A DNA stretch of 64,000 nucleotides from Rubripirellula sp. (GCA_029245125.1 JAQWPZ010000208.1:1111-65110); one strand, 5' to 3'. Counted from the first letter of the stretch, positions 1 through 58,033 are shown. Made by a program: numbers and translations. The notes: generated by a model not told the origin, from the sequence alone.

Positions 1-287
1 AGCAGCAACTGAACCGCATCCCTCATGCTGAAGACGTACCACAGACGCCTTGCTGCAAAGACCCGAACTGCCCGCACCATCATCCACGCCCTAGAATTAA
101 CGGCGGCAGCGAATCGCTGTATTATCAGAGCGATTCCTTCAACCCCACGAGGGAGATGCAGGAGTTCGAGGGAGTCGAAATCATCGCGCCCAACAGTTCT
201 TCAATCGACAAAGAATCATTGCAACCGGCACCAGAAAACTCGTTCCCTCATCTGCACGTCGATTCACCCCTAACAAATCAACCGTAG
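1..287 (+). CDS. C-terminal fragment of a hypothetical protein (runs off the left edge)
   Basis: Frame 3 is open from the window start to TAG at 285-287 (QQLNRIPHAEDVPQTPCCKDPNCPHHHPRPRING...LTNQP*). It was read manually and is absent from the ORF track. No family recognised. Confidence 0.45.
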   Translation, partial: QQLNRIPHAEDVPQTPCCKDPNCPHHHPRPRINGGSESLYYQSDSFNPTREMQEFEGVEIIAPNSSSIDKESLQPAPENSFPHLHVDSPLTNQP

Positions 288-590
288 GCATCGACGCAAA
301 GCCCGCGGAACCCCCGAAGCAAAGTCAGACACCCCCGAAAAGGAGAATGAACGGCTCCTATCTACATCACACCGAAAAACGGTTTAATGCTCGAATAACC
401 GGCAATCTATTCCACCTGCCTAGCCGGTGCAGCGACAGCAAGCTTTTTGGATCGATCTAAATCGAACTTTATAGTTCGCTCACTCGACTGACTGGCCATC
501 CCTCAGCAGCAGCAAAAAGCTGGCCTGAGAGACGGAACAAGGTGCGACAATCTCCTCAGACACTGTCTCATCATCGTTGAGCAGCTTTGT

Positions 591-8996: not shown

Positions 8997-10088
8997 CTAC
9001 TCAAAATGACCGCCTTCGGTGGCGGAAAATTCGGCGTAGACAGGCAAATGACTCGTCACGGCCTCCGCTTGGACGGTCGTTAAATCATACACCCGCATCA
9101 AGTCAATCACGCCACCACGCCCGACAAATTCACTCGTCACCGATTGACGAAACAACAAGTTGCTCGTTTGGTAGCGTCCGAAGATGTCGGTCGGTCGACT
9201 TTCGACCGAGGCCTTCATCTCCGAATCCTCGAATGTCCCCAATAAATAGGCATCATCTGCCTGAAAAAGCCCCGCTAACACGACGTCGTCTTCGCTGCGA
9301 CCATCGTTTGTCACACTTTTCATGACGGCTGGAAGCAAGGCAACTTCCTGGGGTGCCCTGGCCAAGTCAATTCGTACATTGATCAAAGAAAAAGTCCAGG
9401 CACTTGCTGGCGGTGGTGTGGCGGCTCGAAACCAGCCCACCAGCGGATCGAACGTCATTTTATTCGCCGGATCCGCGACGCTGTAAGTTTGCCTCCGATC
9501 AACGACGACCCGCTGCGTATCGAACAAAAAGGCCAACTGCTCGGGTCGATCGGCGGGGCCTGTCGGCTTGCCAATCACATAGTCATATCGCCGACCCGAT
9601 TGATTGATAAAATCTACCAAACGAGGAATCAAATCCCGTTCGATCGAGGCGACCTGTTGCAACGCGACAATGTCGAATCCACCGATCACTCGAGCAATGC
9701 TCTGCCTGCAGAGCGGGTTGCGGAGCTTGGTCGGCCCAAAACCATCGAGTGCCCAAGCCGCGATCTTCAGCGGCTTATGCCGCGTGCCCGCCGGCGGGGA
9801 ACGCGTCGATTCAGTTGGCAGCACCCGATTTCGTGCCGCCGCGAACGGGTTGTCACTCCCCCCAAGACTCATGCTGGAAGTCAATGAGAGCTCCCCAGAG
9901 CTCAAAATCGGCGGTTCGTCGCCGTAGCTGATGAAGGTGGAATCCTCCAAGTCGCTTGTCTTGGGATAAACGGTTACCTCATCTAACCCTGCCACTTCGT
10001 AGTTGTTAAAGAACCACCAACCCCCACCTGCGAGCAGCAGCACAATCACACCCATCTGGATCGGATGGCCGCGGTCAGAATCAGACAC
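8997..10088 (-). CDS. Membrane-anchored endonuclease/exonuclease/phosphatase (DNase I-like) fold protein, catalytically degenerate
   Basis: N-terminal TM segment (GVIVLLLAGGGWWFF). The DNase I-like layout is recognisable (FDIVALQQV, EQLAFLF, SHLPVYAEF) but most metal ligands are substituted. Confidence 0.82.
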   Translation of the reverse strand: MSDSDRGHPIQMGVIVLLLAGGGWWFFNNYEVAGLDEVTVYPKTSDLEDSTFISYGDEPPILSSGELSLTSSMSLGGSDNPFAAARNRVLPTESTRSPPAGTRHKPLKIAAWALDGFGPTKLRNPLCRQSIARVIGGFDIVALQQVASIERDLIPRLVDFINQSGRRYDYVIGKPTGPADRPEQLAFLFDTQRVVVDRRQTYSVADPANKMTFDPLVGWFRAATPPPASAWTFSLINVRIDLARAPQEVALLPAVMKSVTNDGRSEDDVVLAGLFQADDAYLLGTFEDSEMKASVESRPTDIFGRYQTSNLLFRQSVTSEFVGRGGVIDLMRVYDLTTVQAEAVTSHLPVYAEFSATEGGHFE

Positions 10089-26415: not shown

Positions 26416-26443
26416 TTGACAGAGGAACTTTCTGCCATAGGCT
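26416..26443 (+). promoter_or_regulatory. Candidate sigma-70 promoter for the flp/tad leader (TTGACA-16 nt-TAGGCT)
   Basis: Perfect -35 at 26416-26421 and a TAnnnT -10 at 26438-26443, about 90 nt upstream of the riboswitch. Confidence 0.45.
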
Positions 26444-26532
26444 TGGGGTGGAAGTGAGCGGACCGGTGTTCGGTCCGCTGCCGTTGCGTCACGGTTCGAG
26501 AATTCGAACTTTGCTGTAGCGGTCAGCCTTGC

Positions 26533-26646
26533 TCCCAAGACAAAGGCAAACCATTCGCAAGGGTGGGACGCAAAGCTACGGGTCCTCAGGTAACGCGTAA
26601 CCATTTGGTCACGCAATGCCATTAGGATCGCCGAGCTACCGTGGGA
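26533..26646 (+). ncRNA. Cyclic di-GMP-I (GEMM) riboswitch aptamer
   Basis: GGCAAACCATTC-GCAA-GGGTGGGACGCAAAGCTACGGGTCCT...AGGATCGCCGAGCTACCG matches the class I consensus (Vc2 GGCAAACCAUUCGAAAGAGUGGGACGCAAAGCCUCCGGCCUA...UAGGUAGCGGGGUUACCG). The closing stem is TCCCA/TGGGA. Lies in the 5' leader of flp. Confidence 0.93.
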
Positions 26647-26802
26647 TATTCGTTGCGAGTGATCGCGACGAATTGCCAAGGCGTGTCAGGCGAAAGTCGG
26701 AAACGAGGCTGCCCCAGTTCGGATCTGATTCAATTTGAATCAGGTCTCTAGTCGTCGTCGCATACCGGTAACGGTATGCATCTCACTCGCGAGGAGAGAG
26801 AC

Positions 26803-26982
26803 ATGAAGAATTTCGCTAATAGCATCGTAAATTTCCTGAAGGAAGAAGATGGCCCGACCGCGGTCGAGTACGCAGTGATGCTGGCTCTGATCGTAGTCGT
26901 TTGTTTGGCTGCTGTAGGCACCATTGGTACCAACGCGAACGCTAAGTTCGAAGCTGTCGGTGCCGCGATTGCCACTAATTAG
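26803..26982 (+). CDS. flp: Flp family type IVb pilin
   Basis: GAGGAG RBS and ATG 26803. The sequence FLKEEDG/PTAVEYAVMLALIVVV has the Gly cleavage site, the E+5/Y+6 Flp motif and a hydrophobic helix; 59 aa. Confidence 0.95.
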   Translation: MKNFANSIVNFLKEEDGPTAVEYAVMLALIVVVCLAAVGTIGTNANAKFEAVGAAIATN

Positions 26983-26985
26983 TTG

Positions 26986-27060
26986 AATGCCACTGAATTC
27001 AGTGGCATTTGACAAGAGTCTCGACGCCGCTCGGCGCGGATCCCGCTTGGGATCCGTGCC
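26986..27060 (+). terminator. Two strong stem-loops after flp (24-bp perfect palindrome 26986-27009; 12-bp stem 27033-27060), likely attenuating or mRNA-stabilising
   Basis: AATGCCACTGAATTCAGTGGCATT is self-complementary. GGCGCGGATCCC-GCTT-GGGATCCGTGCC forms the second stem. Neither has a long U-tract. Confidence 0.55.
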
Positions 27061-27301: not shown

Positions 27302-27859
27302 ATGTCCGCCATACTTAACGTCGTCACCGAAAATTGGGTTGTCTGGTTCGTCACCTTTGTGCTGGTGGTTGCTGCCGTCATTGACGGAGCGATTTTAAAA
27401 GTTCCCAACTGGCTGACTTTTCCATTCATCACATGCGGTTGGATTCACTGGACGATGCAGGATGGCTGGAGCGGTCTGGGCTGGAGTTTGATGGGCACCG
27501 TCGTGGGAATGATGCTCCTTCTGTTACTACGAAACGTTGGTGGGATGGGTGCTGGCGACGTGAAACTGCTTGCCGGCGTTGGTGCTTGGATGGGAACATT
27601 GGTGACACTGTGGGCGTTCGCCGCCACCGCTCTAGTCGGAGGGATAATGGCCGCATTTATGATCTGGAAGAGCGGACAATGGCAGAAGCACTTCGCAATG
27701 GCTCACCAGATTCTTAACGAATGGAAGACCGTTCGTGATCCACAAAAATTGGCGGAAATCGCTCGCGAGCGGAAGCCAAACATGTATTTGCTACCCTACG
27801 GAATTCCGATGGCAATCGGATCAATCGCCTATTTCGCACTTGCTGGAATGCTGATTTGA
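27302..27859 (+). CDS. cpaA: A24 family prepilin peptidase (CpaA/TadV)
   Basis: AAVIDG (first Asp), KVPNWLT, GMGAGDVKL (second Asp), LPYGIPMAIG; multiple TM helices. Confidence 0.93.
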   Translation: MSAILNVVTENWVVWFVTFVLVVAAVIDGAILKVPNWLTFPFITCGWIHWTMQDGWSGLGWSLMGTVVGMMLLLLLRNVGGMGAGDVKLLAGVGAWMGTLVTLWAFAATALVGGIMAAFMIWKSGQWQKHFAMAHQILNEWKTVRDPQKLAEIARERKPNMYLLPYGIPMAIGSIAYFALAGMLI

Positions 27860-28125: not shown

Positions 28126-29175
28126 ATGCGAAATAAATCACTCTATCTGTTAGTGGCGTGCGTCTGCGGAACCGTCGCGGCGATTCTAGCGAGCCAGTGG
28201 CTGAACGCCCAAGCGAACTCAGGTGGCGCGGGGACCACCACGGAGATCTACGTTTCGACGGGTAGGATCGAGATCGGCGAAAAGATTACCCCCGAAAGAA
28301 TTCAGTGTGAGCAGTGGCCGGCAGATATCGTGCCGGAGGGTGCGACCGGCGATCTTTCGGCGCTGGAAAACAAGTACGCAAAGCAGTACGTGTCGAAGGG
28401 TGAGGCGATCATCCTGGATAAGCTGATGGAGGAGAACTTCAGCACGATTCCCAAAGGTTACAAAGTTGTGTCGATGAAGGCGTCGGACGTCACGATCGCC
28501 AACTTGGTCCAACCAGGGGATCGCGTCGACGTCGTTGGCTACTTCACTCGTAGCGAACTTATCCCACGCAGCATGACCAAAGCGGTTCTGATGGGCATTC
28601 GAGTTTATTCGCTGGACGGCGACACGGACCGAAAGGTTGGCGAGGACCGTCCAGCATCATTCCGCAACATCGAGCTATTGATACACGAAAAAGATGCTGA
28701 GGCGTGGGTGTACGCAAACGAACTGGGCAACATCAGTTTGAACTTGGGCAGCAACTCGGACTACAGCAACACCGACGGATCCAATGAAGCAGGCCAAGAG
28801 TTCTTGGAGTGGCTTGAAAATTATCGTAAACAACAAGACGAGAAAGAAGAGCAGAAGGATCTCGACCAACTGCGTCCAGCGAGCCCAGCTATCAACCTGC
28901 AACAAGAAACGAAACCGGAACCGGAACCAAAAGAAGAAGGTTTCAGGATGCTTAAACTCTTCGAAGGACGAATTGTCGAATACTGGATCGTACCCGGAAA
29001 GGCCCCCGTCGTGATCGGGGAAGCAGGAGCAACCGGGGGTTACGAATCCAGTCCCAGCGAGGAATCGGGCGGAGAAATTCCGCCAATCAAATCGAGTAAC
29101 GACGATCACGAATTTCTAAACGGTGAATTCAGTCCGTTCTTTGAATCGGACGGAGACCCATCGGTGAGAAATTAG
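28126..29175 (+). CDS. cpaB: Flp pilus assembly protein CpaB/RcpC
   Basis: N-terminal TM; SAF domain (IEIGEKIT...EQWPADIVPEG); IPKGYKVVS; LVQPGDRVDVV; acidic C-terminal tail. Confidence 0.92.
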   Translation: MRNKSLYLLVACVCGTVAAILASQWLNAQANSGGAGTTTEIYVSTGRIEIGEKITPERIQCEQWPADIVPEGATGDLSALENKYAKQYVSKGEAIILDKLMEENFSTIPKGYKVVSMKASDVTIANLVQPGDRVDVVGYFTRSELIPRSMTKAVLMGIRVYSLDGDTDRKVGEDRPASFRNIELLIHEKDAEAWVYANELGNISLNLGSNSDYSNTDGSNEAGQEFLEWLENYRKQQDEKEEQKDLDQLRPASPAINLQQETKPEPEPKEEGFRMLKLFEGRIVEYWIVPGKAPVVIGEAGATGGYESSPSEESGGEIPPIKSSNDDHEFLNGEFSPFFESDGDPSVRN

Positions 29176-29328
29176 CTACCACTCCGCAAAGACCGGCCCA
29201 CAACTGGTCTTTAAGAACCGTTTATCCTTTATTGAACTGTTACCCCATGGACCGTGATCGGCCACCGAGCATTCGGTGGCCAATCGATTCGAACGGACTC
29301 GAATCGGTCCCGCAAGGATGTACCCGAG

Positions 29329-30870
29329 ATGGAAACGACTCGACTAACTGCACGCCTGACGGCCGCCATCCTATTGGCCGCCGCACTCGCTGCAACGTCT
29401 TCCAACACCGCTTCCGCGCAGTCCAATCCGGTCCAGCTAACATCCGCTGGTGCCACGGTCAGTCACAACATTTCCCAATCGGTCGAGCGTTTGGATATGT
29501 TGGTCAAGAGCAGCCGAATCCTGACGCTTGAAGCGCGAATCCCAAAATTCCAGGTTCACAACGAAGAAGTTCTGGGTGCCATCCCGGTCTCCCAAAACCA
29601 AATTCAGATCTTCGCCAAAACACCTGGGACGACCCAACTAAACCTCTGGGACACCGACGAGAAACTCTACACCGTCAACGTGACAGTGATGGCAGATGCT
29701 CGGGAAGTGGAGGGCATTTTAAGTTCACAACTGCCATTTGCTTCGTTGAAAGTGATGCCGATCAGTAATAGTGCGATCGTGACCGGCACTGTTACCAGTG
29801 TCGATGACGTCGACCGAGCAGTAGCCATTGTCGAGCAATTTTACGGCACCGTTGTCAACAACATCAAAGTGGTCGGCGTCCAACAGGTCCTGCTGCACAC
29901 ACGGATCATGGAAGTCTCTCGAACTAAATTGCGTGACCTCGGAATTGACTGGGGTACCTTCACCGGCAACTCGTTCTTTTATAATGCCCCGGGGCGGTTG
30001 CTAGACGCATCAAGCGGATCGGTAAGCGGCGCGGCCGCCACTGCAGAAGGTGTTTTATCGACCACCAACAACGTTCTGTCAGGCTCGGGAAATTTCACTG
30101 CATTGATTGCTGCACTGAGAAGGCAAGACCTGATCAAGTTCCTGGCTGAACCAACGGTCATCGCCACCCACGGACGCCCCGCTCGATTCAATGTCGGTGG
30201 ACGCGTGCCGTACATCGTCCCAACCGGTAACGGTTCGGTCTCGGTCCAATATGAGGAATACGGAACGGGAATTGATTTCCTCCCGTTTGTTGTCGGCCCT
30301 GGACGAATCCGCCTTGAAGTACGCCCTGAAGTGACCGAACCAGATGATTCACGAGGGATCACGGCAGCTGGCATTCAAGTCACCGCTTTCAGTCAGCGAT
30401 ACGTTGAAACGGCAGTGGAGCTTCAAGCTGGTCAAACTTTCGCGATCGCTGGCCTGTTGCAAAGCCGCACCGAGGCGGTGACCCAATCAACACCAATTCT
30501 TGGGGAAATCCCTTACTTCGGTGCGATGTTTCGCCGGGTGAAAGAAACTCGCAACGACATTGAATTGCTAATCACGGTCACGCCGGAATTAGTTGATGCG
30601 ATGAATCCGCATCAGGTACCGATGGGTGGACCAGGCCTGAATTCAACCTCTCCAAGCGACTGCGAGCTCTACCTCAATGGACATATTGAAGTCCCAAACA
30701 TGCTGGGCAACGAGGAACATTGCACGGTCGCAGGAGATGGCTACAGCACCTTGCACGGCCAGCCGAACAGTTTCAATGGGAGTGGTCAGATGCCAACAGC
30801 AGCCATTATCCCAACAGCTGAAGGAGTCATTGTCGGCGAAGGTGTAACGATCAGCGCACCCGCCCAATAG
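29329..30870 (+). CDS. cpaC: Secretin of the Tad pilus (CpaC/RcpA) with a BON domain
   Basis: Signal peptide; T2SS/T3SS pilus N domain; QQVLLHTRIMEVSR; LAEPTV; FNVGGRVP; GQTFAIAGL; PILGEIPYFGAMFR; ELLITVTP. Start likely ATG 29329 (the ORF opens at 29254). Confidence 0.94.
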   Translation: METTRLTARLTAAILLAAALAATSSNTASAQSNPVQLTSAGATVSHNISQSVERLDMLVKSSRILTLEARIPKFQVHNEEVLGAIPVSQNQIQIFAKTPGTTQLNLWDTDEKLYTVNVTVMADAREVEGILSSQLPFASLKVMPISNSAIVTGTVTSVDDVDRAVAIVEQFYGTVVNNIKVVGVQQVLLHTRIMEVSRTKLRDLGIDWGTFTGNSFFYNAPGRLLDASSGSVSGAAATAEGVLSTTNNVLSGSGNFTALIAALRRQDLIKFLAEPTVIATHGRPARFNVGGRVPYIVPTGNGSVSVQYEEYGTGIDFLPFVVGPGRIRLEVRPEVTEPDDSRGITAAGIQVTAFSQRYVETAVELQAGQTFAIAGLLQSRTEAVTQSTPILGEIPYFGAMFRRVKETRNDIELLITVTPELVDAMNPHQVPMGGPGLNSTSPSDCELYLNGHIEVPNMLGNEEHCTVAGDGYSTLHGQPNSFNGSGQMPTAAIIPTAEGVIVGEGVTISAPAQ

Positions 30871-30932: not shown

Positions 30933-32150
30933 ATGAGTAATGTACTACGAATCGCCTTAGTCGATCCCAACGACGCCACACGAGAACCCCTCAAAGCAAT
31001 GCTATTGGGGATGGATACCGTGTGGCTCGAGGCTGATTGTTCGCGCTATGAGTTTTTCCCCGATGTGATCGAGCAAACGGGACCTGATGTTGGCGTGATC
31101 GCCTTGGATAGTGATCCGGGCAAAGCAACCAGCTTGATCCAGCAACTGTCAAACGATTCCCCTGACACCGCCATTCTGGCTGCGAGCGAGAACACGGACG
31201 GACAGCTAATCCTGAAAACCATTCGGGCGGGGGCAAGAGAATTCCTAACGTTGCCGGTGTCGAATGAAGATCTATCGGGCGCTCTGCAAAGGGTGAGCCA
31301 GCAAAAGTTCGGATCGTCTGAAGGAGGGGGGCGTTCCTGCGAGGTGATTTGTATCGCAGGTGCCACAGGCGGCGTCGGAACAACCAGTACGGCAGTGAAT
31401 CTCGGTTGTGTCTTGGCTGCCGACACCCAGAACAGTGTCGCACTCCTGGACATTGATCTCGCCTTGGGTGACGCCGATGTATTCCTGGATTCGATCCCTG
31501 ATTACACCTTGGCCGATGTCGTTCAGAACGTTGCCAGACTGGACATTCAGTTACTGAAACGATCACTAACCAAACACAGCAGTGGTCTCTACTTGCTGCC
31601 ACGACCTGTCGAACTGCACGACACGACAGCAATCACCGAAGAGAGCATCCGGAAGGTGATTAGCTTACTGAAAGCCTCTTTCACCCACTTAATCATTGAT
31701 CTCTCCAAGACCTACAGCCAAGTTGATATGGTTGCGATTGAGAGTTCGAGTCGGGTACTGCTGGTAACTCAACTCGATCTGCCATGTTTGAGAAACGTGG
31801 TTCGCCTGTTAATGAGTTTCGAGGAAATCGAGGGTCTCAAAAACAAGGTCGAAATCGTGGTCAACCGTGCCGGCCTTGACTCGGGGCAGATCAGCCTCAA
31901 GAAGGCAGAGGAAACGCTTGGACGAGATGTTTACGCCCTACTTCCCAACGACTACCGAACCATGGTTGAGGTACGAAACAACGGCGTACCACTGATCGTG
32001 CAGGCTCCCAAAGCAAATATCACACAGGCGATTCGAGATTTAGCCGAGAAGATATCCGGCGGCCCAGAAGAGAAAGACCAAGCGGGTGCTGCCGCAAACA
32101 AACCAACAGAAAGCAAGTGGAAAAAGTTTTGGCCCGGCACGAAGGCGTGA
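30933..32150 (+). CDS. cpaE: Pilus assembly/localisation protein CpaE/TadZ (pseudo-REC plus MinD/ParA-like ATPase)
   Basis: N-terminal receiver-like fold; deviant Walker A GATGGVGTTS; LLDIDLALGD; IIDL; LLPNDY. Confidence 0.92.
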   Translation: MSNVLRIALVDPNDATREPLKAMLLGMDTVWLEADCSRYEFFPDVIEQTGPDVGVIALDSDPGKATSLIQQLSNDSPDTAILAASENTDGQLILKTIRAGAREFLTLPVSNEDLSGALQRVSQQKFGSSEGGGRSCEVICIAGATGGVGTTSTAVNLGCVLAADTQNSVALLDIDLALGDADVFLDSIPDYTLADVVQNVARLDIQLLKRSLTKHSSGLYLLPRPVELHDTTAITEESIRKVISLLKASFTHLIIDLSKTYSQVDMVAIESSSRVLLVTQLDLPCLRNVVRLLMSFEEIEGLKNKVEIVVNRAGLDSGQISLKKAEETLGRDVYALLPNDYRTMVEVRNNGVPLIVQAPKANITQAIRDLAEKISGGPEEKDQAGAAANKPTESKWKKFWPGTKA

Positions 32151-32258: not shown

Positions 32259-33734
32259 TCAATCTTTTGATTCGAGCCAGTGGACGAGTGTTCGCACCAT
32301 CACGCCGGTCGCTCCGGCATCTCGATGCGATTTCGGACTTTCCGCAAACGCGGGCCCAGCGATATCAAGGTGCAGCCACGGCACATCCCCAACAAAATTC
32401 TCCAAGAACTTTGCAGCCGTAATCGCTCCGCCCCAGCGGCCCTCACCAATGTTCTTGATATCGGCGACCTTACTCTTCACTTTCTCGTCGTAGAGTTCGA
32501 ACATCGGCAATTGCCAAACCGGTTCACCTTGTCCTTCAGCTGCCTGCCGAACAGCGTCGCACAAAGCTTGATCATTGGTCATCATCCCGACCACTTCGGT
32601 ACCGAGAGCAACCATACAAGCACCGGTCAAGGTTGCTAAGTCGACAATCGCCTGCGGTTCACACTGGACAGCGACATCTAAGGTATCTGCCAACACAACG
32701 CGACCTTCAGCATCCGTGTTTAGAATCTCGATCGTTTTACCGCTTCGAGTCTCAATCACATCCCCGAGTTTGTAACTGTCACCGCTAACCATATTCTCAG
32801 CCAATCCACAAAGCCCGATCAGGTTTTTGCGCAGACCTAGCTTGGCAGCTGCGAGCATGACCCCAACGACTGTAGCGGCACCGGCCATGTCGCATTTCAT
32901 ATCTGCCATTGCGTCACTGGGCTTCAGCGACAAGCCACCGCTATCAAACGTGACGCCCTTACCGACGAGTGCTAAAGGAGCCTCGGTCCCTCCACCTTGA
33001 TAACGCATAATCACCAAACGTGGCGGCTTACTTGACCCTGCTCCCACGGCCAAGATAGCGCGACAGCCTTCCGCCTCAAGCTTATTTTCATCCCAGATCT
33101 CAACCTGAATTTCTGTCCCCTCAGCCAACTGCTCCACCCGCTCTGCAAAGCTGGCGGGGTATACCATCGCGGGTGGCTCGTTGACGAGTCGCCGTGTGTG
33201 ATTGATCGAATGACCAATCACCGTACCGCGATCGATGACTGCTTGGTCGATGCCACTAAAATCGATCGACGAGGGCACTTCGATCGGTGGATCCGATTGA
33301 TAAAGGGCCTGACCCTCGCAAGCGGAGGCTGCCCCAGCGACAATTTGTTCCTGGTACTCTGCAGGAAAAGATTCGGCGAGCGTGACAATCACACGATCCC
33401 GCTTCCGATCGACGAGCTTCCGGATTGCCGACGCCGACGACTCGAATGCATCCAAGCTCGTTGCCGGCTTATTTCCCAGACCGACGACCAGAATCATCAC
33501 TGGTCCTTCAGGGAGAGGTGAAGCGAACAACGACAATTCGCCTTGTTTGCCTCGCAGTTGACCCAATTCGATTAGTCGCGATATCCAGTTATCGGTCAAT
33601 CCATCAATGGCCGAGAGGGTGGGAGTGAGTTCCCCACTTTCGCTCAAACCAACGACCACAACATCCGCTTTCTCGGCGGCTGGAGCGGTGACAGTGCGAA
33701 ATACAGGAGTCTCAAAAGGGGTACTTTCCAGCAT
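32259..33734 (-). CDS. pepA: Leucyl aminopeptidase (M17)
   Basis: GKGVTFDSGG, MKCDMAGAA, NTDAEGRVVLAD, DLATLTG, WLHLDIAG. Confidence 0.96.
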   Translation of the reverse strand: MLESTPFETPVFRTVTAPAAEKADVVVVGLSESGELTPTLSAIDGLTDNWISRLIELGQLRGKQGELSLFASPLPEGPVMILVVGLGNKPATSLDAFESSASAIRKLVDRKRDRVIVTLAESFPAEYQEQIVAGAASACEGQALYQSDPPIEVPSSIDFSGIDQAVIDRGTVIGHSINHTRRLVNEPPAMVYPASFAERVEQLAEGTEIQVEIWDENKLEAEGCRAILAVGAGSSKPPRLVIMRYQGGGTEAPLALVGKGVTFDSGGLSLKPSDAMADMKCDMAGAATVVGVMLAAAKLGLRKNLIGLCGLAENMVSGDSYKLGDVIETRSGKTIEILNTDAEGRVVLADTLDVAVQCEPQAIVDLATLTGACMVALGTEVVGMMTNDQALCDAVRQAAEGQGEPVWQLPMFELYDEKVKSKVADIKNIGEGRWGGAITAAKFLENFVGDVPWLHLDIAGPAFAESPKSHRDAGATGVMVRTLVHWLESKD

Positions 33735-54158: not shown

Positions 54159-56075
54159 ATGACGACTTCGTACCAACCGAACGCAGGCAAGCAGCAGACG
54201 GACCTGCAAACTGCTTCTCCAAATGCTCGGTCCCATCAAGAATCTCTACGGAGCAAAATTGTACTGTCTGTGGCGGGGATTTTCTTGCTGTTTGTCGCAA
54301 TCGATGAAGTAGTCCGGCAGTATTTAATTCAACCTGAAATCGATGCCTTCGTTGAATTCAAATCAGCACAAGATGCGAATCGAGTCTTGGCGGCCTTGGA
54401 CAGCGAATCGAATCACTTGAATGTGCTCACGACAACGTGGGCCAATCAAATTCAAGCAAACGATTCCGATGCGGCCTGGAATGCTGATTTCACGAAACAA
54501 TGCTCGCCTAAAAACGCCGACTGGATCGCAACCGTTTCTCCAACCGGGCAATGGCGATGGATCGCGAAAAACAGCGAATCCAAGGTGTCTGAGTCAGCGA
54601 TCCAGGCATTTCAATCGGTCTTAGAACCAAGCAGCGATCCTCGTCGAAGTGATCCTCGTCGAAGTGGCACTCACGGCATTGCGCCACTCGGACCAGATTC
54701 GCTCGCGTTGTTTTCTCTAGCCCCGCTTCAAAAGCTTGGCAACGAACGGGGATGGCTGCTACTCGTCGCCCGAAATCTCGATGACGACTTGCTTGATGCG
54801 GTTCGAAACCAAACACAGGTCGCCTTCACCCTGCAAACGCACGCATCAGGTGATCGAGAACCAACGAGAGAGCGAAAAGATAATTCCAAACGGATCGTCG
54901 AAATACCAATTATCGCTCCCGTCGAAAACCAAGCTGGAGCATTCACTCTCGAACTCCCGCGAGAGTTCGTCGCAGGTTCGCAACGCACCACGCGTTTCGC
55001 TCGCAGCGTTTTCATCCTTGGCTCCGTGCTGGCCTTTCTGGTTCTGCTGCACAGATTGCACAGCCTCGTGATTCGACCGCTTAACACGATCCGCACAAAC
55101 ACCAATCGGTTGCCCAAAACAGAATCCAATCGCGACCCTCTGATCCACAAGGGCAACGATGAAATCAACGATCTGGCCAGGGCATTTGATGCGATGGCCA
55201 ATCGCGTTGAAGAAACAGAAAAACAACTGCACGAGCGACCAGAGGAAAACAGTTGCATTCAAGTCGCAAGCTCCGTGATCCACAATGTTGGAAACGTTCA
55301 AACGAACGTCAACAGTTTGATCGAAGCAGCTTGTGAACGAACCCGTCAACTCCGCATCTCACCACTGAAAAAACTTGCCGAACGACTTCGTTCCGAAGAG
55401 CCTGATGTGGCAATGCTCGAAGCAACACCGGATTACTTGGAACACCTCGCGGGATCGTTGCAATCAGATCAACAGTCGATCAATGAACTTCTTTGCACAC
55501 TGAATGATAACGTCCGCCATATTCGTGATATTATTCACGCGCAACAGCAACACACCGAGCCATCCTTAGAGATCTGTTCGATACCGGTCCAGGATTTGAT
55601 TGAAGAAGCCGTCGCGTGCTGCCGTGCCCGATTAGAGGCCGATGCAGTCGAGATTTCAATCAGCGGACAGCTACAAGTAGAGATTCGCAGCGATCGCTCC
55701 CTCATGCTCCAAACAATGATCAATTTAATCGGCAACGCGCGAAACGCGTTACGATCCATCGATTCCTCCAGGCGTCAGTTGCAGATTGACGTCCGTTCTG
55801 AGGGCGATCGAATCGAAATCGATTTCCAGGACAATGGTTGTGGTATCAACCCTGAAATATTGGATCGTATTTTCGATTCAAAATTTACGACACGAGATAC
55901 CGGAACTGGTCTTGGACTGCACTTCTGCGCAGTCACATTGAAAAACCTGGGTGGATCAATACGAGCTTCGAGTGGCGGATTGAATCAAGGATCTGTTTTT
56001 ACGATCGAAGTGCCGACATCCCTCGACAACCTCGTCCACTCGCCGCAGACAATTGCCTCAGGAAAGACATCATGA
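54159..56075 (+). CDS. Membrane sensor histidine kinase (CHASE4-like, HAMP, HisKA, HATPase)
   Basis: Two TM helices flank a CHASE4-like periplasmic domain. HAMP (GNDEINDLARAFDAM); H-box VIHNVGN; NLIGNA, DNGCGI, GTGLGLH. Contains an in-frame 15-bp duplication (DPRRS x2, 54636-54665). Confidence 0.92.
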   Translation: MTTSYQPNAGKQQTDLQTASPNARSHQESLRSKIVLSVAGIFLLFVAIDEVVRQYLIQPEIDAFVEFKSAQDANRVLAALDSESNHLNVLTTTWANQIQANDSDAAWNADFTKQCSPKNADWIATVSPTGQWRWIAKNSESKVSESAIQAFQSVLEPSSDPRRSDPRRSGTHGIAPLGPDSLALFSLAPLQKLGNERGWLLLVARNLDDDLLDAVRNQTQVAFTLQTHASGDREPTRERKDNSKRIVEIPIIAPVENQAGAFTLELPREFVAGSQRTTRFARSVFILGSVLAFLVLLHRLHSLVIRPLNTIRTNTNRLPKTESNRDPLIHKGNDEINDLARAFDAMANRVEETEKQLHERPEENSCIQVASSVIHNVGNVQTNVNSLIEAACERTRQLRISPLKKLAERLRSEEPDVAMLEATPDYLEHLAGSLQSDQQSINELLCTLNDNVRHIRDIIHAQQQHTEPSLEICSIPVQDLIEEAVACCRARLEADAVEISISGQLQVEIRSDRSLMLQTMINLIGNARNALRSIDSSRRQLQIDVRSEGDRIEIDFQDNGCGINPEILDRIFDSKFTTRDTGTGLGLHFCAVTLKNLGGSIRASSGGLNQGSVFTIEVPTSLDNLVHSPQTIASGKTS

Positions 56076-58033
56076 CTTCGGATGCCGAGCCAAGACGAAT
56101 ACTCATTGTCGACGAACTTCAGGAGATCCACGATTCATTCAGCCGGATTTTTGCTGAGCAAAACGAGAACAAGGCAGTTCTCTTTGACTTCGAAACGAAG
56201 TTCCTCAATGCAGGAGAGGAGCAGAAACCGGTCTTTAAAGTCGGCGAAAAGACAATCGTCTATGAATTAGATCATGCCAAATCTGGCGAACAGGCATGTG
56301 ATTTGGTTCACCTGTCGATCCAAAACAATCGACCCTACAGTGTTGCTTTCGTTGACATGCATATGCCACCAGGCATGAATGGCACAGAAACAACAGAAAC
56401 CCTTTGGGGGATCGATCCGAACCTACATGTTGTCATCTGCACAGCCTACAGCGATCACGCGTGGGAACATGTGCTCGATCGGCTGGGACACAACGATCGA
56501 TTACTGCTTTTGAAAAAGCCCTTTGAATCAGACGAAGCAAAACAACTCGCGTTAGCTCTGAGCGAGAAACACCGAATCGCATCGATCCAAGAGCGAAAAG
56601 TTTTCGACCTGGGACGCGAAGTTGAACGCCGGCGTCGCGCGGAAGAAACGATGCGGGACATGGCTCACCGAGATGCGCTCACGCAACTACCCAACCGCCC
56701 CTACCTGATCGAAAAACTGACGCAAATCGTCCAGCGACAACATCAGGACAAGTCGCCCCAACATGCCGTTCTTTTCTTGGACCTTGATCACTTCAAAATG
56801 ATCAACGACAGTTTGGGACACGATGCAGGTGATGATCTATTAAATCAGGTCGCGACCAGGCTGAAAGAATGTGTCCGCGAACAGGACACAACTGGCCGGG
56901 CCAGCGAAGAGGGTGAAACAGTGCGATTAGGTGGCGACGAGTTCGTCGTACTACTCGAATTCCTGGAAGACTCTCAGGACGCGTTGACCGTCGCGCATCG
57001 AATTGTCAAGCGAATCTCTGAACCGTTTTCTCTCGCCGGACGCTTGGTCAACGTCGGCACCAGCGTTGGCATCGCCTATATCGACGATCGCGTCTCTGAT
57101 GCTCATGAAGCACTTCGCAATGCCGACACCGCTATGTACCGTGCCAAAAACTCGGGACGCGGCCAATTTGCTGTCTTCGATCAAACAATGCACGAGGACA
57201 TCGTTGCTCGACTTGAGTTAGAAAACCAATTACGCCGCGCGGTCGAAGCCAAAGATTTCCAACTGAACTACCAACCGATTGTTAACTTAAACACCGGAAC
57301 AGTGCAGGGTGTCGAGGTTCTAGTTCGCTGGACCGCTGACAGCGGACGAGTCGTCTCACCTGCTCAATTCATTCCATTGGTCGAAGATCTTGGACTCATT
57401 TCTCAACTTGGAGAATGGGTTTTGGAACAAGCGATGAATGAGATGACCGAGTTGATGAAAGAACACGGAATCGACGATGTGTATTTGGGTGTCAATGTAT
57501 CTCAACTGCAACTAAGCGACCCCTTCTTCCTTGATCATCTGGAGCGGATCATCCAGCGAACGGGCTTTGATCGCAGCATGCTCAAAATCGAGATGAACGA
57601 ATCTGGTAACGTGCGATCCGCAGAGCAAACTTTCCACACACTACTCGAGCTGCACGATTCAGGAGTTGGCATTCAGATTGATGACTTTGGGAAAGGGCAG
57701 TCATCATTGACATGCTTCCAAACCTACCCAATCGAAGCAGTAAAAATCGACCGAAGCTTCACTGCTTCGATCGCAACAGACCATAGCCATGCGGTGATTG
57801 CCCGCGCCATCGTTCAACTGGCCCACCACCTGAACGCCAAGATCGTTGCGGAAGGTGTTGAATCCGCCAACCAACTCGAATCACTACGAATGTGGGGCTG
57901 CGACGCAGCACAAGGATTCTTGTTCTCCCCACCGCTCACAAAAAAATCACTGGGGCGACTTCTGCAGGACCCACTCCAGAGTGAAGGCGTCCGAATGCTA
58001 CGCCGCGCTGCCCGCAATGCTTTTGTCATTTAG
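56072..58033 (+). CDS. REC-GGDEF-EAL diguanylate cyclase/phosphodiesterase
   Basis: REC with AFVDMHMPPG; DALTQLPNR, FLDLDHFKMINDSLGHDAGD, RLGGDEF; EAL domain with EVL, DDFGKG, KIDRSF and AEGVE. ATGA-coupled to the kinase. Confidence 0.95.
   Translation: MTSDAEPRRILIVDELQEIHDSFSRIFAEQNENKAVLFDFETKFLNAGEEQKPVFKVGEKTIVYELDHAKSGEQACDLVHLSIQNNRPYSVAFVDMHMPPGMNGTETTETLWGIDPNLHVVICTAYSDHAWEHVLDRLGHNDRLLLLKKPFESDEAKQLALALSEKHRIASIQERKVFDLGREVERRRRAEETMRDMAHRDALTQLPNRPYLIEKLTQIVQRQHQDKSPQHAVLFLDLDHFKMINDSLGHDAGDDLLNQVATRLKECVREQDTTGRASEEGETVRLGGDEFVVLLEFLEDSQDALTVAHRIVKRISEPFSLAGRLVNVGTSVGIAYIDDRVSDAHEALRNADTAMYRAKNSGRGQFAVFDQTMHEDIVARLELENQLRRAVEAKDFQLNYQPIVNLNTGTVQGVEVLVRWTADSGRVVSPAQFIPLVEDLGLISQLGEWVLEQAMNEMTELMKEHGIDDVYLGVNVSQLQLSDPFFLDHLERIIQRTGFDRSMLKIEMNESGNVRSAEQTFHTLLELHDSGVGIQIDDFGKGQSSLTCFQTYPIEAVKIDRSFTASIATDHSHAVIARAIVQLAHHLNAKIVAEGVESANQLESLRMWGCDAAQGFLFSPPLTKKSLGRLLQDPLQSEGVRMLRRAARNAFVI

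Follow-up and report, generated by a model that had tools for sequence, protein, structure and literature searches.

A class-I c-di-GMP riboswitch predicted in the long leader preceding flp and its pilus genes in a Rubripirellula-like planctomycete

Control of a pilin gene by a c-di-GMP-sensing RNA is exemplified by the c-di-GMP-II riboswitch located upstream of pilA1 in Clostridioides difficile, reported to be an 'on' switch, which differs from the locus described here in its aptamer class, in the pilin that it controls (a type IVa pilin, not Flp) and in its terminator-based platform. In the class-I (GEMM-I) aptamer Vc2, each of the two guanines of c-di-GMP is paired, one to G20 and one to C92, and A47 provides a further contact to the ligand, which is bound with a Kd of 2.2 nM; the GEMM-Ib RNAs recognise cAMP-GMP (PMC5888326). 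The GEMM-Ib RNAs (3',3'-cGAMP) of Geobacter have the same fold and likewise control pilus and surface-related genes; they carry an A at position 20, whereas a G is found at this position in the locus considered here and an A in six related flp leaders. That GEMM RNAs are common in certain orders of Planctomycetes, with cpaA among the pilus genes that they regulate, was already described by Weinberg et al. in 2007 (PMC1950547), so that the presence of GEMM in this phylum and upstream of cpaA, on which the original prediction might have claimed novelty, is not new. The RNA class, the phylum and the operon type of that report are shared with our locus, cpaA being the first gene after the 59-codon flp which is large enough for routine annotation; the report, however, provides a list entry only and contains no analysis of the flp leader, of its alternative helices or of how it is distributed within the phylum. 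No paper treating a c-di-GMP riboswitch together with the Flp pilin was found in our literature search.

The window, i.e., the whole stretch of 64,000 nucleotides that was analysed, contains in our reading a functional class-I c-di-GMP riboswitch within the approximately 350-nt leader of a flp-cpaA-cpaB-cpaC-tadZ operon of a Rubripirellula-like planctomycete; judging from the sequence, we assign to this reading a probability of about 0.82. The aptamer resembles Vc2 of Vibrio cholerae (RF01051) in its three-helix junction, GNRA-capped P2, AAA linker, residues G20, A47 and C92 and, probably, in its position in a 5' UTR; unlike Vc2, it has a variable extension hairpin in P3 and an extended P1, and it is embedded in a leader of about 350 nt with a long-range helix competing with P1 and no terminator overlapping the aptamer. 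The regulator is thus well known and its gene context was noted in 2007, but the leader is long, conserved and more elaborate than usual. As a regulator class it is ordinary and within reach of routine annotation: contrary to the expectation that it would be missed, Rfam-based annotation at default thresholds detects the match. Its interest lies in a testable link between c-di-GMP and the production of the Tad pilin in planctomycetes, a group in which the molecular basis of attachment and of the life cycle is poorly understood.

The aptamer and the operon that it precedes

A scan with Infernal of the entire 64-kb window, on both strands and at the Rfam gathering threshold, returned a single RNA match above threshold, the GEMM-I aptamer at 26536-26644(+). 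The best model is RF03167 (c-di-GMP-I-GGC), matched over its full length with 67.9 bits against a gathering score of 59 (E = 6.4e-14); RF01051 (c-di-GMP-I), which was run on its own because overlapping members of a clan are suppressed in the scan, scores 62.5 bits at the identical site against a gathering score of 35, covering model positions 1-87 of 87. These scores lie far beyond chance, and the Infernal check proposed with the original prediction was passed, with the qualification that its class assignment is right as to c-di-GMP-I while the top-scoring model is the GGC variant and not the canonical one. The parts of the aptamer are the following.

26533-26539 with 26640-26646 (+): extended P1, from folding and covariation
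26545-26551 (+): GGCAAAC, read from the sequence
26551-26566 (+): P2 hairpin CCAUUC-GCAA-GGGUGG, in which GCAA is a GNRA loop, read from the sequence
26564-26574 (+): GGGACGCAAAG, read from the sequence
26574-26637 (+): P3 as a whole, within the GEMM-I aptamer
26574-26585 and 26625-26637 (+): P3 strands AGCUACGGGUCC and GGAUCGCCGAGCU, read from the sequence
26595-26614 (+): variable P3 extension hairpin GCGTAACCATTTGGTCACGC, modelled as an insertion in the P3 loop
26638-26641 (+): ACCG tail, read from the sequence

The hallmarks on which the original prediction was based (GGCAAAC, the GNRA-capped P2, GGGACGCAAAG, the P3 pairing and ACCG) are all found where it had placed them, and the additional hairpin that it had described in P3 is indeed an insertion relative to the model. 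The equivalents of the three ligand-contacting residues, also part of that prediction, were recovered by alignment to the model: G26545 corresponds to G20, the unpaired G preceding the G-C pair of P2; A26572 to A47, the first A after the closing G-C; and C26639 to C92, the second unpaired base 3' of P3. Covariation within the aptamer comprises changes on both sides of three pairs of P2 and of three pairs of P3. The assembly (334 contigs, 91% complete) was also scanned for GEMM-I and contains three matches, including the flp aptamer; the two additional ones, scoring 68 and 67 bits, are located on contig C138 at 9468-9557(-) (locus L001), upstream of a stand-alone CheY-like receiver-domain protein (PF00072, 2e-23), and on contig C10 at 222-302(-) (L002), upstream of a signal-peptide protein truncated at the contig end.

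The aptamer shares its strand with flp and precedes it; the claim that it is directly upstream is correct in that no gene intervenes, but a structured leader of 158 nt separates the two. The genes of interest are as follows.

26803-26982 (+): flp, 59-aa Flp/Fap prepilin (PF04964, E = 5.5e-11)
26989-27011 (+): perfect 7-bp hairpin GCCACUGAAUUCAGUGGC followed by AUUUG, directly after the flp stop codon, read from the sequence
27302-27859 (+): cpaA, A24 prepilin peptidase (PF01478, 1.3e-14)
28126-29175 (+): cpaB/rcpC (PF16976)
29254-30870 (+): cpaC secretin (PF00263 and PF13629)
30933-32150 (+): tadZ/cpaE-like ATPase (AAA_31 with TadZ_N)
32259-33734 (convergent): M17 peptidase gene, which ends the unit, from Pfam
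54159-58033 (+): CHASE4-HAMP histidine kinase, then a REC-GGDEF-EAL protein (GGDEF 4e-44, EAL 3e-70)

The identification of a Flp pilin, of a Tad pilus and of a planctomycete is borne out by PF04964, by the Cpa genes downstream and by the closest named relative, a Rubripirellula MAG (Pirellulaceae, Planctomycetota), whose Flp is 100% identical and whose leader and flp DNA are 90% identical. The gene order flp-cpaA-cpaB-cpaC-tadZ places flp at the head of the operon. The prepilin begins with MKNF and carries the processing motif EEDG/PTAVEY, of the G/xxxxEY type; an in-frame ATG at 26776 was rejected as the flp start: several congeners and other genera lack this codon, whereas the start at MKNF is conserved. 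Genes for the CpaF/TadA ATPase and for TadB/TadC were not found in this cluster, where tadZ is followed by the convergent M17 aminopeptidase and then by unrelated genes; cpaF and tadBC may be located elsewhere in the genome. The hairpin that follows flp is possibly an attenuator or a terminator and, as an attenuator, may set the ratio of pilin to assembly machinery. The proteins encoded at 54159-58033, about 27 kb from the riboswitch, probably represent a two-component module making or breaking c-di-GMP; as the window encodes a REC-GGDEF-EAL protein, c-di-GMP metabolism is present in the organism.

Distribution and architecture of the leader

Among related loci (36 congeners, with 6 other families of the order sampled), the aptamer is found above threshold upstream of flp and on the same strand in 40 of 40. 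When the DNA of 60 relatives was searched, 35 of 36 congeners and most of the remaining families of the order proved to have both the leader and flp. The gene flp is strongly conserved across Planctomycetota, and a survey of its upstream regions, which had been suggested as a check of the original prediction, detected the aptamer at most about 500 nt upstream in approximately 29 of 80 flp loci from across the phylum. Fifteen of these belong to the 20 closest loci and 14 to the 60 that are more distant, a set that includes MAGs labelled Singulisphaera, Gemmataceae, Planctomycetaceae and Adhaeretor. The association of the aptamer with flp is conserved at the level of the genus and of the order and is also seen in further orders of planctomycetes, and the link between c-di-GMP and the Tad pilin would be widespread in the Pirellulales and present in other orders of the phylum.

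Some individual loci deserve mention. One contig among the 40 loci carries two flp genes, each with its own aptamer; tandem flp genes with their own GEMM-I aptamers are seen in L049 (950-1051 and 1856-1956, minus strand) and in L052 (249-364 and 1223-1336). Planctomycete-type flp genes occur on two contigs (L062 and L077, with GEMM-I in L062) of MAGs labelled Nitrosopumilus sp. and Chitinophaga sp., and these contigs are therefore probably mis-binned. No GEMM-I match was obtained in the Pirellulaceae flp locus L059, which contains Acido-Lenti-1 RNA at 221-266(+) and 322-367(-), more than 1.1 kb upstream of flp. In the congener L034 the flp frame is seemingly disrupted, with no in-frame MKNF start and an altered C-terminus, which may reflect a frameshift or an assembly error.

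The aptamer is likely to lie within a 5' leader of about 350 nt, whose start is predicted from a promoter-like motif. This motif is shared by 32 congeners as GAGTTTTTTGAC-N-TGTCATAGGTTTC; a generic sigma-70 scan did not report it at 26416-26443 because its -10 hexamer fits three of six positions only. Its location suggests a likely transcription start near 26450, and hence an aptamer inside the transcript. The elements of the leader, apart from the aptamer itself, are listed here.

26416-26443 (+): promoter-like element, TTGACA at 26416-26421, 16-nt spacer, TAGGCT at 26438-26443, with a T-rich tract upstream
26457-26479 (+): H0, hairpin of 9 bp, 5'-terminal in the predicted transcript; paired in 99.7% of cells, with 4 pairs changed on both sides
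26480-26523 (+): Hx, GCCGUU/AGCGGU around a hairpin of variable sequence; 96.9% paired, 4 pairs changed on both sides
26524-26539 (+): switch strand CAGCCUUGCUCCCAAG, composed of the 5' flank and the P1 5' strand, with alternative partners
26649-26672 (+): variable hairpin between P1 and helix A, missing in five congeners
26677-26685 (+): helix A 3' strand CAAGGC(G)UG, pairing with 26524-26531 (GCCUUG with CAAGGC)
26689-26698 (+): small GNRA hairpin GGC-GAAA-GUC; 100% paired, nearly invariant
26699-26711 (+): helix B 3' strand GGAA-A-CGAGGCUG, pairing with 26524-26535 in competition with extended P1 and helix A
26722-26746 (+): H3, 10-bp hairpin; changes on both sides in 10 of 10 pairs
26750-26761 (+): conserved sequence AGUCGUCGUCGC preceding H4
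26760-26779 (+): H4, 8-bp hairpin with a GUAA loop; changes on both sides in 7 of 8 pairs
26781-26802 (+): UCUCACUCGCGAGGAGAGAGAC with the Shine-Dalgarno tract GGAGAGAG, folding back on UCUC/CUC in the MFE structure; sequence conserved

In an alignment of 32 genomes, pairing amounts to 92.8% for the structure composed of H0, Hx, extended P1, P2, P3, helix A, the GNRA hairpin, H3 and H4, compared with 31-45% for controls whose 3' partners were slid by 1-3 columns; 36 pairs change on both sides, and none of 500 shuffles attains the observed values. A permissive Rfam scan of the leader gave no credible second RNA family.

Alternative pairings and the possible output of the switch

The switch strand at 26524-26539 can adopt two mutually exclusive pairings, which are supported by covariation and folding, the covarying classes being clades and thus representing few independent events. 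In state 1, extended P1 (26533-26539 with 26640-26646, UCCCAAG with CGUGGGA) would be stacked on helix A (26524-26531 with 26677-26685). The third pair of extended P1 (alignment columns 123/240) is CG in 19, UG in 7 and UA in 6 of the 32 genomes, and helix A is 99% paired in the 32 leaders, its changes being mostly one-sided, with one pair changed on both sides. In state 2, helix B (26524-26535 with 26699-26711; in its CUCC/GGAG form CAGCCUUG-CUCC with GGAG-A-CGAGGCUG) would close the entire aptamer domain, with P1 cut to about 4 bp. By a register-aware count, 27 of 32 leaders have only canonical pairs at the top of helix B; it reads CUCC/GGAG in 16 and CUUUC/GAAAG in 7, i.e., a compensatory change plus one added base pair, and in the clade of the window, which has GGAA, it contains one C·A mismatch. 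The same 5' nucleotides thus retain complementarity to two different partners, as is characteristic of a two-state switch. The unconstrained MFE fold of the window does not contain helix B. A third alternative is seen in the same fold, in which GCCUU at 26526-26530 pairs with AAGGC at 26543-26547, within the core and including G20; both strands are invariant.

Compared with the free ensemble, imposing helix B costs at most 1 kcal/mol in 19 of 32 leaders, and 2.2-10 kcal/mol (median about 5) are needed to impose extended P1; the ground state is predicted to be helix B, and the cost of extended P1 is estimated to be of the same order as the energy provided by a ligand of nanomolar Kd at micromolar concentration. 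The arrangement recurs in other genera with other sequences, a different P1 strand (CAUCCUCG) matching a different purine-rich partner in the middle of the leader: pairing of P1 with its own mid-leader partner amounts to -15.8 kcal/mol against -13.8 kcal/mol for cross-genus combinations, and the observed mean is reached by none of 5000 permutations, a statistic which is inflated by relatedness. The binding of c-di-GMP would stabilise P1, move the RNA from state 2 to state 1 and free the purine-rich strand GGAAACGAGGCUG. Covarying alternatives such as helices A and B may serve as a model for the wiring of GEMM-I to gene expression without a standard terminator.

How the choice between the two states would be read out is approached by the following observations. 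No canonical intrinsic terminator was found in the leader; the accessibility of the Shine-Dalgarno tract and of the AUG does not change consistently between forced extended P1 and forced helix B, for which reason masking of these sites at equilibrium was rejected; and for the strand freed in either state a conserved partner further downstream could not be identified. Of two further candidates, the first was rejected and the second is not supported. A helix C, in which the helix A 3' strand would pair with the tail and the 3' half of H4 and thereby expose or hide the Shine-Dalgarno tract, averages -8.1 kcal/mol with own and -7.4 kcal/mol with foreign partners, and reaches only -5.0 kcal/mol in the window, its complementarity being striking in a few genomes only (L029, L043 and L046); the duplexes of a relay model, in which the freed helix B strand pairs with a local anti-Shine-Dalgarno sequence, are no better than those of shuffled controls and inconsistent in position. 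Given that there is no intrinsic terminator, no consistent change at the Shine-Dalgarno tract and no conserved downstream partner, we commit ourselves only to a ligand-dependent choice between states 1 and 2. As to the output, an action on translation initiation or mRNA fate appears slightly better than an even bet, non-canonical or Rho-dependent termination is clearly less probable, and any other output is improbable. The direction is somewhat in favour of 'on' at high c-di-GMP, 'off' being less probable though by no means unlikely; this preference derives mainly, by analogy, from further adhesion and pilus genes that c-di-GMP riboswitches control. The riboswitch may in turn be tied to holdfast formation and to the life cycle.

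Two specific mechanisms have to be weighed against this restricted reading. Transcriptional action would require helix B, or H3/H4, to be a non-canonical or Rho-dependent terminator whose formation is prevented by ligand-stabilised P1 and helix A, resulting in a classic 'on' switch, though one whose terminator stem would, unusually, form over a long range. In 78 of 322 GEMM instances the aptamer competes with a terminator (Weinberg 2007, PMC1950547), a Roseiconus leader carries GGCUGCUUUUU, and 7 of 32 congeners have at least five U in the 8 nt behind the 3' strand of helix B (e.g., GGCUGCCUAAUUUUGUU); such a U-run is, however, missing in most congeners and in the window, which has only three U in its best 8-nt stretch and no terminator-like site in its leader, and the stem would have to span a folded insert of about 170 nt, so that we regard this mechanism as a possible but doubtful one. 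Rather less probable is a direct role of the P1 5' strand as an anti-Shine-Dalgarno sequence which pairs, without ligand, to the flp ribosome-binding site about 260 nt downstream and is locked in P1 by the ligand, freeing the site. In 14 of 38 leaders the P1 strand has the Shine-Dalgarno region within the top 6% of its partners, including the window, where CUUGCUCCC/AGGAGAGAGA (-8.4 kcal/mol) belongs to the top 1%, and in L038 the duplex AUCCUCCG/CCGGAGGAA attains -13.6 kcal/mol; but CCUC-rich strands match GGAG sites anyway, so that composition alone could suffice, the mid-leader helix-B element is stronger in most leaders and is transcribed earlier, the ensembles display no consistent change in Shine-Dalgarno exposure, and class-2 congeners have no GGAG at the usual spacing.

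Ligand and variant residues

The assignment of the aptamer to a ligand is complicated by the higher score of RF03167. The consensus of this model reads GACGC-G-AAG and GCU-G-C, where the window and Vc2 have GACGC-A-AAG and GCU-A-C; its variant nucleotide, a G replacing A47 (with 'GGC' being read from the model consensus), is A26572 in the window, which is therefore of the canonical type by its contact residues, and a further feature of RF03167, a G at position 91, is common to most congeners but not to the window. RF03167 presumably outscores RF01051 through overall similarity only, if the meaning of 'GGC' is correctly taken from the model consensus. Among 73 planctomycete aptamers A47 is present in 69 and G20 in 59, and A20, the signature of GEMM-Ib, is absent from the aptamer of the window, which has G26545. 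On these grounds, the aptamer of the flp leader would be expected to bind c-di-GMP.

That it senses another ligand instead, for example 3',3'-cGAMP or whatever the 'GGC' variants bind, might be suggested by the lead of RF03167 over RF01051 (5 bits) and by the occurrence of A20 in six related flp leaders and of C20 in one; we consider it very unlikely, as the window holds the full canonical set of contact residues and an A, not the G of RF03167, in common with the large majority of planctomycete aptamers. That the sequence resembles an aptamer by chance, or is a relic without function, is hardly credible in view of an E value of about 1e-13, of the compensatory changes and of its occurrence in at least 40 genomes, in every case 5' of flp and in the same orientation. 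The reading to be retained is accordingly that of a riboswitch likely to respond to c-di-GMP, and there is some potential for novelty, limited to the extended two-helix platform and to the A20/C20 variants. It is conceivable, though we hold it only tentatively, that the Pirellulaceae flp leader represents a distinct, larger architecture, in which GEMM-I is clamped by helices A and B sharing a 5' strand, with neither a canonical terminator nor simple masking of the Shine-Dalgarno tract, and that the A/C20 subclade may answer to cGAMP instead of, or besides, c-di-GMP. Our literature search found no paper on GEMM-Ib in Planctomycetes, and the variants in orthologous leaders amount to a natural experiment on ligand specificity. 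The leaders with A20 are L019, L032, L033, L035, L056 and L062, and the one with C20 is L045; the sequence of the orthologous riboswitch before flp is AAAAGCAAACC or AAACGCAAACC in a subclade of this genus, so that position 20 is there an A, the cGAMP-type signature of GEMM-Ib, or a C, and not a G.
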